DNA from: an uncultured Planctomycetia bacterium
GTDB lineage: Bacteria > Omnitrophota > Gorgyraeia > JACOVV01
DNA length: 64,000 nt
NCBI GenBank assembly: GCA_964372345.1
Contig: CAYJQR010000001.1
Location: forward strand, 36,825-100,824
Direction of reading: 5' to 3'
Position numbers and translations under genes: made by a program
Notes under the pieces: generated by a model
What the model was told of the DNA's origin: nothing
Seen by the model: the letters and a program-made list of their open reading frames with translations, nothing else
Databases searched by the model: none
In this document: positions 1,037-2,121 of the stretch, piece by piece
Numbering within the stretch: the first letter of the stretch is position 1
Layout: every line of letters begins with the position of its first letter

Positions 1037-1474
1037 ATGGAAAATGGAAAATGGAAAATGGAAAATGGATTTAGGAATTTGTTTTTCCCATTCTCCATTC
1101 TCCATTCTCCATTCTCCAAGCGAGGATTCTCTCTCATCGAGGTAATCCTCGCCCTGGCGATTCTGATCTTGGGACTCGTCGGAGTGATTGTTCTATTTCC
1201 CGTCGGGCTCCGCGCGAGCCGTCAGGCGAGTGTCTTAAGCGAAGAAACCTTGCTGGCGCAGAGTCACCTGGAAGAAATAAAGACTTTGGGGTATGAGAAA
1301 ATTGACCCCAAAGAGGGAACCTATAAGAATTTCAAGTGGCAGATCGCGTTTGAAGAGACTGCTCCTGAAGGAATCGCCGATCCCTCCGGGCTTCGCAAAG
1401 CGATCGTGACGGTCAGATGGAACCAGGGAGGGCAGGAGAAGAAGGATAGTTTCGTGACGATGGTGTCTCAATGA
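1037..1474 (+). CDS. Minor pseudopilin (GspI-like) with a prepilin cleavage/methylation motif preceded by an unusually long leader.
   Basis: Carries KRG|FSLIEVILALAILILGLVGV, a class III signal peptide with an N-methylation site. The 24-31 aa leader (MENGKWKMENGFRNLFFPFSILHSPFS) is entirely encoded by a heptamer-repeat element. Size after cleavage is about 115 aa. Confidence 0.7.
   Translation: MENGKWKMENGFRNLFFPFSILHSPFSKRGFSLIEVILALAILILGLVGVIVLFPVGLRASRQASVLSEETLLAQSHLEEIKTLGYEKIDPKEGTYKNFKWQIAFEETAPEGIADPSGLRKAIVTVRWNQGGQEKKDSFVTMVSQ
1039..1118. repeat. Heptamer inverted-repeat miniature element, copy A1: (GGAAAAT)4, a 20-nt spacer, then (CCATTCT)4.5.
   Basis: A direct 7-mer array is followed by an imperfect reverse-complement 7-mer array. 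The same architecture recurs at 1487-1562 and 5358-5473. Confidence 0.85.
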
Positions 1475-2121
1475 GTCCAAATACAGAGAATGGAAAATGG
1501 AAAATGGAAAATGGATTTAGGAATTTGTTTTTCCCATTCTCCATTCTCCATTCTCCATTCTCCGCTTTTACATTGCTGGAACTTCTGATCGCCATGACGA
1601 TTCTAGTGGTGATTCTAACCAGCACTTACACTCTTTTTCGCAGCGCCTCGGGGGCCTTCTTAAAAGGGGAAGTGCGGTCGGAACTGTATCAGCAGGTCCG
1701 GATTATCTTTGGTGTGGCGGAACGCGAGATCAGCTCGGCGCTCCCTGTGCCGGGAAAGGATCGTTATTTCCAGGGAAGCGAAGACCGGCTCTTCTTTATC
1801 TGTCCCGTTTCTGAACAGGACAAAGCGGACTTAAGAGAGGTCGGTTACTGGTTGTCGAATGAAGATCAGACGCTGATGCGCCACGTGGATACCGACCCGG
1901 ATTTTGATTTCACCACGGCTGACACGAATGAAGAACTTGGGGTCCATATCCAGCGGCTGGCGTTTTCTTATTATGACGGAGAAAAATGGGGAAACTCCTG
2001 TGATTCGCAGATCGAGCAGGGGCTCCCGAAGGCGGTTAAAATGGAAATAACCATTGGGGATAGTCGTGGGAAAGAGAAGAGTGAGTTCTCAACGATTGTG
2101 CGGATTGAGACAAACCAGTAA
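1471..2121 (+). CDS. Minor pseudopilin (GspJ-like).
   Basis: Has a prepilin-like segment AFTLLELLIAMTILVVILTSTYTLF with Glu at +5. Its leader is again encoded by the heptamer element. The -1 residue is Ala/Ser rather than Gly. There is a 4-nt overlap with the upstream gene. Confidence 0.65.
   Translation: MSPNTENGKWKMENGFRNLFFPFSILHSPFSAFTLLELLIAMTILVVILTSTYTLFRSASGAFLKGEVRSELYQQVRIIFGVAEREISSALPVPGKDRYFQGSEDRLFFICPVSEQDKADLREVGYWLSNEDQTLMRHVDTDPDFDFTTADTNEELGVHIQRLAFSYYDGEKWGNSCDSQIEQGLPKAVKMEITIGDSRGKEKSEFSTIVRIETNQ
1487..1562. repeat. Heptamer inverted-repeat miniature element, copy A2.
   Basis: Sequence is agaatggaaaatggaaaatggaaaatggatttaggaatttgtttttcccattctccattctccattctccattctcc. 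The core is nearly identical to A1, including the ggatttaggaatttgttttt spacer. Confidence 0.85.

Follow-up and report, generated by a model that had tools for sequence, protein, structure and literature searches.

Rickettsia palindromic elements (RPE), reportedly described by Ogata et al. (2000), are palindromes of a selfish kind that have entered protein-coding genes in frame. The REP/REPIN elements, by comparison, lie outside genes, are marked by GTAG/CGTC tags, and depend on a RAYT (IS200/IS605-like) gene, whose transposase mobilises them (PMC3116915, PMC3733652). Tandem heptamers have been described as well: GGGNATC heptamers occur in Xanthomonas and Nostoc (PMC4692102), GGGACCG is repeated four times at 49 inter- and intragenic sites of Geobacter metallireducens (PMC2700814), and TAACTGA repeats lie directly upstream of start codons in Beggiatoaceae, where they are proposed to be translational regulators (PMC4679880). 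The leaders of class III signal peptides, for their part, are variable in length and "invariably" end in Gly or Ala (PMC10191384); known leaders have 6–26 amino acids (aa), those of type IVb (T4b) pilins 15–30 aa, and their residues are hydrophilic or neutral (PMC4471445). Here we describe a 78-nucleotide (nt) hairpin, built of tandem heptamers, in the leader-coding regions of two adjacent pseudopilin genes within a 64-kb stretch of DNA from an uncultured bacterium of the Omnitrophota (contig CAYJQR010000001.1, positions 36,825 to 100,824; hereafter the window). We consider it probable that these leader elements are passenger insertions, tolerated since the leader is removed; the pseudopilins themselves are ordinary.

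With the four-unit heptamers (the Calothrix/Nostoc cyanobacterial STRR and their kin) the window elements share the 7-nt unit, the number of about four units, and a dispersed, multi-copy distribution over many phyla; the known arrays often lie at gene ends and sometimes within genes, as here. Unlike those of the cited genomes (Xanthomonas, Nostoc, Beggiatoaceae), which are mostly intergenic, about 90% of the window arrays lie inside reading frames. They are also often paired with a near-complement into a long hairpin, and many different heptamers coexist in the window and its relatives, swapping at orthologous sites. The G-quadruplex account of four units does not apply here, because the window units are not G-rich. 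As with RPE, a short palindromic family is found inside essential genes, with the frame kept and the element probably translated as an extra segment at permissive sites: in-frame palindromes occur in conserved genes and are absent from orthologs (in the relatives L002, L006 and L128, and for MetRS in PDB 2csx). The window elements are, unlike RPE, tandem heptamers, shorter (~78 nt), and present in unrelated phyla, and the comparison is made as an analogy only, with no homology claimed. REP/REPIN elements are likewise small, hairpin-forming, dispersed repeats in inverted pairs; the arms of the window elements carry no GTAG/CGTC tag, and no transposase-like Pfam match was obtained in the window open reading frames (ORFs).

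Two pseudopilin genes with repeat-encoded leaders

The two genes, the two copies of the element and the sequences just upstream are arranged as follows.

33–1034, + strand: 3' part of a GspF/PilC-type platform gene (Pfam T2SSF, E 2.9e-66; stop TAA 1032–1034)
1023–1027, + strand: Shine-Dalgarno-like GGAGG, 9 nt upstream of ATG 1037, read from the sequence
1037–1474, + strand: GspI-like minor pseudopilin precursor, 145 aa (ORF, Pfam N_methyl, homologs)
1034–1118, + strand: heptamer hairpin copy 1, with left arm (AAAATGG)x5.1 at 1034–1069, loop at 1070–1087 and right arm (CCATTCT)x4.4 at 1088–1118 (Tandem Repeats Finder (TRF); repeat family D1)
1471–2121, + strand: GspJ-like minor pseudopilin precursor, 216 aa (ORF, Pfam T2SSJ and N_methyl)
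1486–1563, + strand: heptamer hairpin copy 2, 78 nt, with left arm at 1486–1515, loop at 1516–1533 and right arm at 1534–1563

The leader text common to both genes is an 85-nt DNA repeat, 1033–1117 and 1479–1563 being 95% identical, loop included. As the copies agree to this extent while the mature proteins are unrelated paralogs, what the two genes share here is repeated DNA, not a protein motif. TRF resolves each copy into (GGAAAAT)x4–5, a 19-nt loop identical in both, and the near-complementary (CCATTCT)x4.4. Relative to an MKRG allele, the net insertion of copy 1 is 1040–1117, or 78 nt and 26 codons. In the GspI-like gene the element separates codon 1 from the ancestral KRG; the GspJ-like gene has SPNT plus the element in place of the ancestral KR before Ala. 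A model of pure insertion at all sites was ruled out by this replacement of KR and by the AhcY gene discussed below, where the net gain is 3 aa.

As RNA, the + strand folds at −32.8 (copy 1) and −34.5 kcal/mol (copy 2), with z-scores of −4.7 and −6.1, and the − strand at −46.8 and −50.2 kcal/mol, with z-scores of −7.9 and −10.1. The + strand stem has an A.C mismatch every 7 bp, and the − strand fold is stronger because this mismatch turns into G.U. The stem of copy 1 starts at the U of AUG 1037. An intrinsic terminator was rejected, since no T-run follows the + strand hairpins and a terminator scan gave nothing at the elements. An Rfam scan of the whole window at gathering thresholds gave no match, and an exact 30-nt search for this loop variant in JGI metagenomes found none.

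The GspI-like protein begins MENGKWKMENGFRNLFFPFSILHSPFSKRG↓FSLIEV (↓ marks the predicted cleavage site), its leader having 30 aa when ATG 1037 is taken as the start and 23 aa when the in-frame ATG 1058 is; cleavage is predicted after Gly30 (codon 1124–1126), for a mature N-terminus FSLIEV. The GspJ-like protein begins MSPNTENGKWKMENGFRNLFFPFSILHSPFSA↓FTLLELL, with a leader of 32 aa if translation starts at ATG 1471 and of 21 aa if it starts at ATG 1504, where the identical database protein P0013 begins; here cleavage is predicted after Ala32 (GCT 1564–1566), for a mature N-terminus FTLLELL. A preliminary description of this DNA had called both leaders unusually long and the second devoid of Gly at −1. 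Both statements hold, with 30 and 32 aa counted from the first ATGs and an Ala codon, GCT, at 1564–1566.

Judged by their profiles, both genes encode ordinary GspI-like and GspJ-like minor pseudopilins, with scores partly below the equivalog cut-offs. Each passes for PF07963 (N_methyl; 23.6 bits for the GspI-like and 25.0 bits for the GspJ-like protein, cut-off 21.2) and for TIGR02532 (19.1 and 20.7 bits, cut-off 16.3), and the Pfam N_methyl matches span residues 28–50 and 31–52, respectively. The GspJ-like protein also scores 33.1 bits with PF11612 (T2SSJ), above the cut-off of 28, and 31 bits with TIGR01711, below the cut-off of 64.85. The GspI-like protein has a weak XpsI/PilV match (XpsI 37 bits, below the cut-off of 150), and the profile searches gave weak Verru_Chthon cassette B/C/A matches too. 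The assignment as GspI- and GspJ-like minor pseudopilins made in the preliminary description is borne out by the N_methyl match of both, the T2SSJ match of the second, and the GspF neighbour.

The class III motif is present in both proteins (KRG↓FSLIEVILALAILILGLVGV and SA↓FTLLELLIAMTILVVILT), with a hydrophobic run after Phe and Glu at +5. Positions −3 to +5 are intact (KRG↓FSLIE, SA↓FTLLE), and G30, F31 and E35 of the GspI-like protein are invariant in 13 homologs. The locus thus resembles class III signal peptides and the GspI/GspJ/GspK proteins of type II secretion systems (T2SS) in having G/A↓F-x-x-x-E followed by a hydrophobic alpha1N segment, N_methyl and T2SSJ/T2SSK matches, and the I-J-K order after GspF. 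It is unlike them in that the ancestral leader has 4 aa, the window leaders have 30–32 aa with a repeat-encoded and partly hydrophobic 26-aa block, and, with its 1089 aa, the GspK-like protein is a giant. Measured against the short hydrophilic or neutral leaders described (6–26 aa; T4b 15–30 aa), those of the window have 30 and 32 aa and include LFFPFSILHSPF, a stretch whose 11-aa Kyte-Doolittle mean reaches 1.2. The maximum 19-aa mean of the inserted block is 0.6–0.9, as against >3 for the alpha1N helix; being only moderately hydrophobic, the block should not act as a second membrane span. The mature parts, compared with five relatives, have ratios of non-synonymous to synonymous substitution (dN/dS) of 0.04–0.15, a sign of strong purifying selection.

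Only TCC AAG CGA GGA in the GspI-like gene and GCT in the GspJ-like gene separate the element from Phe+1, and neither gene has an ATG, GTG or TTG between the element and the cleavage site. Because no canonical start follows the element, the repeat must be translated if a functional pseudopilin is to be made. We infer that translation through at least the right arm is required, and the long leader itself is probably real. The GspF stop lies 2 nt before the GspI-like start, which is preceded by GGTGGGAGGGG in the relatives L004 (GCA_016177145.1, named Candidatus Omnitrophota), L006 and L007 too. The GspJ-like start forms an ATGA overlap with the upstream stop, and an NTGA overlap start is kept in L002, L004, L006 and L007. 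Since the hairpin begins at the start codon, initiation is probably coupled to the ribosome that terminates GspF 2 nt upstream, and initiation at the hairpin probably depends on such translational coupling to the upstream gene. The unconventional start codon that had been suggested finds no support, given the GGAGG 9 nt upstream of ATG 1037, the conserved ATGA overlap, and the lack of a canonical start after the repeat.

Empty sites and turnover in relatives

The closest GspI-like homologs have 4-aa leaders; the identities given are to the window protein.

P0001 (L002): GspI-like, 95% identity, leader MKGG↓FSLIEV
P0003 (L128): GspI-like, 90% identity, leader MKRG↓
P0005 (L006): GspI-like, 85% identity, leader MMRG↓

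Where the window has ATG (78 nt) AAG CGA GGA TTC, the DNA of L128 reads ATG AAA AGG GGG TTC, and L002 has empty sites in both genes, GTG AAA GGG GGT TTT (MKGG↓F) and GTG AAG CGC GCA TTT (MKRA↓F). GspJ-like proteins without the element read (M/V)KRA↓FTLLELL in L002, P0015, P0018 and P0038 and MRMRA↓ in P0032, while distant homologs have Gly at −1 (MKRNG↓, MHKG↓, MRKG↓) and one has Ser. The possibility that homologs would reveal a short conventional leader starting after the repeat is therefore half realised: the homologs do have short leaders (MKRG, MKGG, MMRG, MKRA), and the window itself has no ATG, GTG or TTG after the repeat.

Because the element-free relatives read MKRA↓FTLLELL, the Ala at −1 is inherited in this clade, and an origin of this Ala from the repeat was ruled out, relatives without the repeat being already MKRA↓F. 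The Ala would then be a processable variant, independent of the repeat. A Gly-to-Ala change at −1 is said by Strom and Lory (1991) to permit cleavage still. By mass spectrometry, ComGC of S. pneumoniae was found to be cleaved after Ala15 and methylated (PMC3694846). The view that PilD-type peptidases expect Gly, so that Ala is anomalous, does not stand beside the accepted "Gly or Ala" and the Ala shared by repeat-free relatives. Neither of the two consequences drawn from it is upheld: an unusual peptidase is not called for when Ala at −1 lies within the class III definition (PMC10191384), is cut in ComGC after Ala15 (PMC3694846) and is ancestral in the clade, and a lack of processing is not indicated when the length comes from an in-frame 78-nt repeat, and not from a different type of leader, and Ala at −1 is accepted.

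Other relatives carry other inserts at the junctions between the GspF and GspI-like (F/I), GspI- and GspJ-like (I/J), and GspJ- and GspK-like (J/K) genes.

L004, F/I: left arm only, MENGKWRMENG↓F, with the Gly at −1 coming from the repeat
L007, F/I: (TCTCGTA)x4, an ATG in the loop, (GGTCACG)x4
L004, I/J: full GGAAAAT hairpin, with arms conserved and loop diverged relative to window copy 2
L005, I/J: (CAGCGTC)x4 and (TCTCGTC)x3
L006, I/J: (CAGCGTA)x6 and (CGAAGTA)x4
L005, J/K: (GTCGTCA)n...(CTCACGA)x4
L002 and L006, J/K: CCCTCCCCCTTAAAGGGGGAGGG palindrome
L004, J/K: no insert

Different heptamers are found at F/I, I/J and J/K in L004, L005, L006, L007 and L129, all of them in frame, in genes whose mature proteins are 85–95% identical.

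Heptamer arrays across the window and beyond

By TRF the window holds 21 period-7 arrays of 2.1–5.6 units, mostly 27–36 nt long and typically of about four units; the unit pattern occurs 29 times as against 0.16 expected. Inside open frames lie 19 of the 21; of the other two, one is intergenic (6981–7011) and one spans both the stop of GspF and the start of the GspI-like gene. Host genes include those for Lnt and MetRS (four arrays each), a LolD-like protein, the IspD C-terminus, HolB, a ThiL-like protein, and AhcY. In MetRS (38056–39774) the hairpin 38848–38931 is a ~31-aa insertion relative to PDB 2csx. Where a unit would generate a stop, as does GCTAGGA, it alternates with GCTGGGA, so that the frame stays open. 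The two leader elements belong to a genome-wide population of 7-nt arrays of about four units, almost all inside unbroken frames.

At least 120 loci in many phyla carry the exact (GGAAAAT)x3.3 array. The same hairpin family lies in frame in a Ddl (P0030), and GC-rich metagenome contigs have it, likewise in frame, in MiaA-like and FolP-like ORFs. A protein search with the repeat-encoded peptide returned mainly hypothetical ORFs of 30–70 aa over intergenic hairpins in other phyla; these matches reveal the spread of the repeat and tell little about host proteins.

Several further observations concern these arrays. In AhcY, the (AACTCAA)x5 array 61512–61546 falls, when aligned to solved AhcY structures, on a variable loop, with a net +3 aa. 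Lnt (15352–16935) and MetRS each have several in-frame insertions, with hairpins of the GCTAGGA/CTCCTAG type at 15859–15935 and 38848–38931. GGAAAAT units flank nested palindromes, CCCGCCGGAGGCGGG at 16284–16298 in Lnt and CCCACCGGAGGCGGG at 38499–38513 in MetRS; Lnt also has TCAGCCGAAGGCTGA. Two repeats have longer units: a perfect, non-heptamer 31-nt tandem unit is repeated 2.3 times at 16555–16625 in Lnt (CCCAGCTCCCTTCGACTTCGCTCAGGGCAGG), and a perfect 24-nt unit occurs twice in the spacer before ispD at 31192–31239 (TCAGCCAAAGGCTGATCAGCCTCT), with a TCAGCC..GGCTGA palindrome also found in Lnt. Nearly all long ORFs of the window are on the + strand, and the GGAAAAT arrays (6/6) are on the coding strand; across phyla, among the matches listed, arrays under open frames of ≥150 aa numbered 41 in sense and 22 in antisense, which hints at an orientation bias. 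All heptamer arrays lie outside a defence or mobile-looking island at 39817–52702, which holds AAA_14/DUF4143, DUF2130, a type I restriction-modification system (HsdR, HsdM, HsdS) interrupted by AbiEi/AbiEii, and an unannotated ORF of 1099 aa (49403–52702).

In unrelated phyla, at loci L015 and L051 of Pyrinomonadaceae and Acidobacteriota metagenome-assembled genomes, (ATGGAAA)n lies at the very start of ORFs that run on, as read by eye, into signal-peptide-like sequence (MENGKWKMENSKTLTKFVFIFLSFLL... and ...MENGKFILAFALLAFFAGNLFA↓QK). Start codon and n-region both seem to come from these arrays; the ATGGAAA unit has an ATG in every frame.

Other arrays in the pilus operon

The gene order is GspF, GspI-like, GspJ-like, GspK-like, an immunoglobulin (Ig)-like protein, PilM-PilN and GspM-like, with I-J-K consecutive after GspF; the same gene order is found in L001–L004. 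Downstream of the two pseudopilin genes lie the following features.

2081–5350, + strand: GspK-like giant minor pseudopilin, with a GTG start inside the GspJ-like 3' end and predicted leader MSSQRLCGLRQTSKTYDVRRTTYDESG↓IALIIVV
2123–2153, + strand: (ACGTACG)x4.4 array (TRF), in frame in the GspK-like leader (TYDVRRTTYD), ahead of SG↓IALIIVV
5347–6945, + strand: secreted Ig-like (Big_13) protein (Pfam Big_13), with its N-terminal region encoded by the heptamer hairpin 5353–5473
6981–7011, + strand: (CTGTACC)x4.4 array (TRF) in the spacer before PilM-PilN, the sole purely intergenic array in the window
7020–8672: PilM-PilN fusion gene, downstream of the Ig-like gene

The GspK-like protein scores 72 bits with the NCBIfam GspK model NF037980 (cut-off 130, not reached) and 26.7 bits with Pfam T2SSK, PF03934 (cut-off 24.2, passed). 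Its GTG 2081 is conserved, the homologous GTG being picked by gene callers in L002 and L004. Within its 1089 aa are a lamin-tail domain (LTD) and a ComEA-like helix-hairpin-helix (HHH) region, which suggest a tip pseudopilin with extra binding functions, possibly for DNA or glycan.

In the Ig-like gene, TRF finds arrays at 5353–5391 and 5443–5473; the fold is −50.5 kcal/mol, and the hydropathy peak 2.3. The signal-peptide-like N-terminus (5347–5500) is almost wholly encoded by the hairpin, the purine-rich arm giving a polar n-region and the complementary arm a hydrophobic core. It reads MRKTENGKWKVESGKDKNPFSGFYVLLIVFALSIFHSLFSIFPVYA↓EA in the window and MIETESGKWKFVFVFSTFHFLLSTFPVYA↓EA in L002 (14176–14270). 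Other hairpins are carried at the start of this gene in both L002 and L004; in L004 (8243–8349) the same place has another heptamer pair, CAGGGTT / CCTGTCC, and the contig ends before the mature part. The 6981–7011 array is absent from L002, where the spacer is 7 nt long. In all, arrays are present at 5/5 consecutive junctions of the pilus operon, as against 2 of ~46 other junctions.

Discussion

Under the passenger reading, a 78-nt hairpin at the leader-coding site, in frame, would be translated as 26 extra residues, and initiation through it (~−33 kcal/mol) would rely on coupling to the upstream gene. Prepilin peptidase would then cut at Gly30↓Phe31 and Ala32↓Phe33 on the cytoplasmic face and discard the whole leader, and the extra residues would be tolerated because the entire leader is cleaved off. 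Several points weigh against this reading. The leader has a stretch rich in F, L, I and P, a departure from the hydrophilic or neutral character described for class III leaders; no Peptidase_A24 was found among the ~50 window ORFs scanned, and such a gene may sit elsewhere in the genome. The AhcY array looks, in the alignment, like a replacement rather than a clean insertion. The GspJ-site element and its 5' flank AGTCCAAATACAGA are ~89% identical between the window and L004, where the adjacent coding DNA is 70% identical and synonymous divergence (dS) is saturated, which suggests nucleotide constraint, recent exchange between the lineages, or repeated insertion; L002, which is nearer to the window than L004, is without this element. 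Finally, the full occupancy of the operon junctions exceeds what purely neutral passengers would predict unless permissive sites are invoked.

These last points bear on an alternative that differs from the passenger reading only on neutrality, namely that selection maintains the hairpins as regulatory devices of the pilus operon, serving translational coupling, subunit stoichiometry, RNase action or mRNA stability, or the binding of a heptamer-binding protein, with translation a side effect. Arrays at 5/5 operon junctions, the retention of some array at the junctions of relatives though its sequence changes, a stem that begins at the AUG, an element that differs less between the window and L004 than synonymous sites do, and the proposed role of TAACTGA repeats as translational regulators (PMC4679880) all speak for it. 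We nevertheless think it unlikely: the closest relatives function without the element at F/I and I/J (L002) or at J/K (L004), MetRS, Lnt, AhcY and LolD have arrays of the same kind in mid-gene, with no junction to regulate, the heptamer sequences vary between strains, Rfam gave no match, and the + strand has no terminator-like tail. The arrays in essential enzymes, where switching off would be lethal, also tell against contingency loci, in which one 7-nt unit gained or lost would shift the frame and switch the pseudopilins on or off, with ATGGAAA starts rescuing some states. Such switching would suit a unit of 7 nt, which is not a multiple of 3, arrays at the 5' ends of genes for surface structures, ATGs at 1037, 1044, 1051, 1058 and 1065 that cover three frames, and the enrichment of simple sequence repeats near N-termini cited in PMC4692102; with all eight related loci (8/8) in frame, an equal unit count in the orthologous GspJ-site array of L004, and unit numbers that cluster at about four everywhere instead of being dispersed, we hold it to be very improbable.

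The remaining alternatives concern the proteins more directly. That translation really begins at an unconventional codon, within the right arm or behind it (in-frame ATT at ~1100, AAG at 1118), the repeat being an untranslated intergenic hairpin, would accord with the 4-aa leaders of relatives, with hairpins that are intergenic in most genomes and called there only as tiny hypothetical ORFs, and with L007, whose left arm is untranslated and whose ATG lies in the loop. We give this explanation very little credence, as no ATG, GTG or TTG follows the element, the pyrimidine-rich right arm offers no purine-rich Shine-Dalgarno sequence, a good GGAGG-N9-ATG and the conserved ATGA overlap lie upstream, and both genes and all relatives keep an open frame across the element, something for which an untranslated spacer would have no need. 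It is equally far-fetched, in our estimate, that the insertions inactivate the proteins or disable their processing, leaving uncleaved or mislocalised precursors or requiring a non-PilD peptidase. The atypical hydrophobic stretch in the leader and the failure to find a prepilin peptidase gene in the window ORFs scanned (~50) fit that idea, but strong purifying selection acts on the mature parts, the motif from −3 to +5 is unbroken, many lineages retain long repeat-encoded leaders at the same genes, and ordinary prepilin peptidases process leaders of 15–30 aa and Ala at −1.

We advance a further proposal tentatively and with considerable doubt: that blocks of ~31 nt (four heptamers), often with their inverted complement, are written at gene 5' ends and permissive sites, and that the hairpins create or replace N-terminal export signals. 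They could do so because polar residues are encoded by the purine-rich arm and hydrophobic ones by the complementary arm, as at the signal-peptide-like N-terminus of ORF 5347 and of its L002 ortholog. If this were true, surface proteins in Omnitrophota and other phyla could draw on the repeats for rapid N-terminal innovation, with start codons in all three frames by way of ATGGAAA, and the repeats would be more than junk.

The heptamer repeats of four units, known for decades yet unexplained, can sit almost wholly in reading frames, essential enzymes included, and they turn over fast at fixed sites. Units poor in G show the preference for four copies as well, which speaks against G-quadruplexes being the general reason for it. 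For annotation, such repeats explain miscalled start sites and tiny hypothetical ORFs. The pseudopilins themselves amount to a natural experiment, in which proteins more than 90% identical carry leaders of 4–32 unrelated residues with −1 (Gly/Ala), Phe+1 and Glu+5 fixed. Because the leaders vary while these positions stay the same, one would expect the prepilin peptidase of these bacteria to require little more than the cleavage motif.

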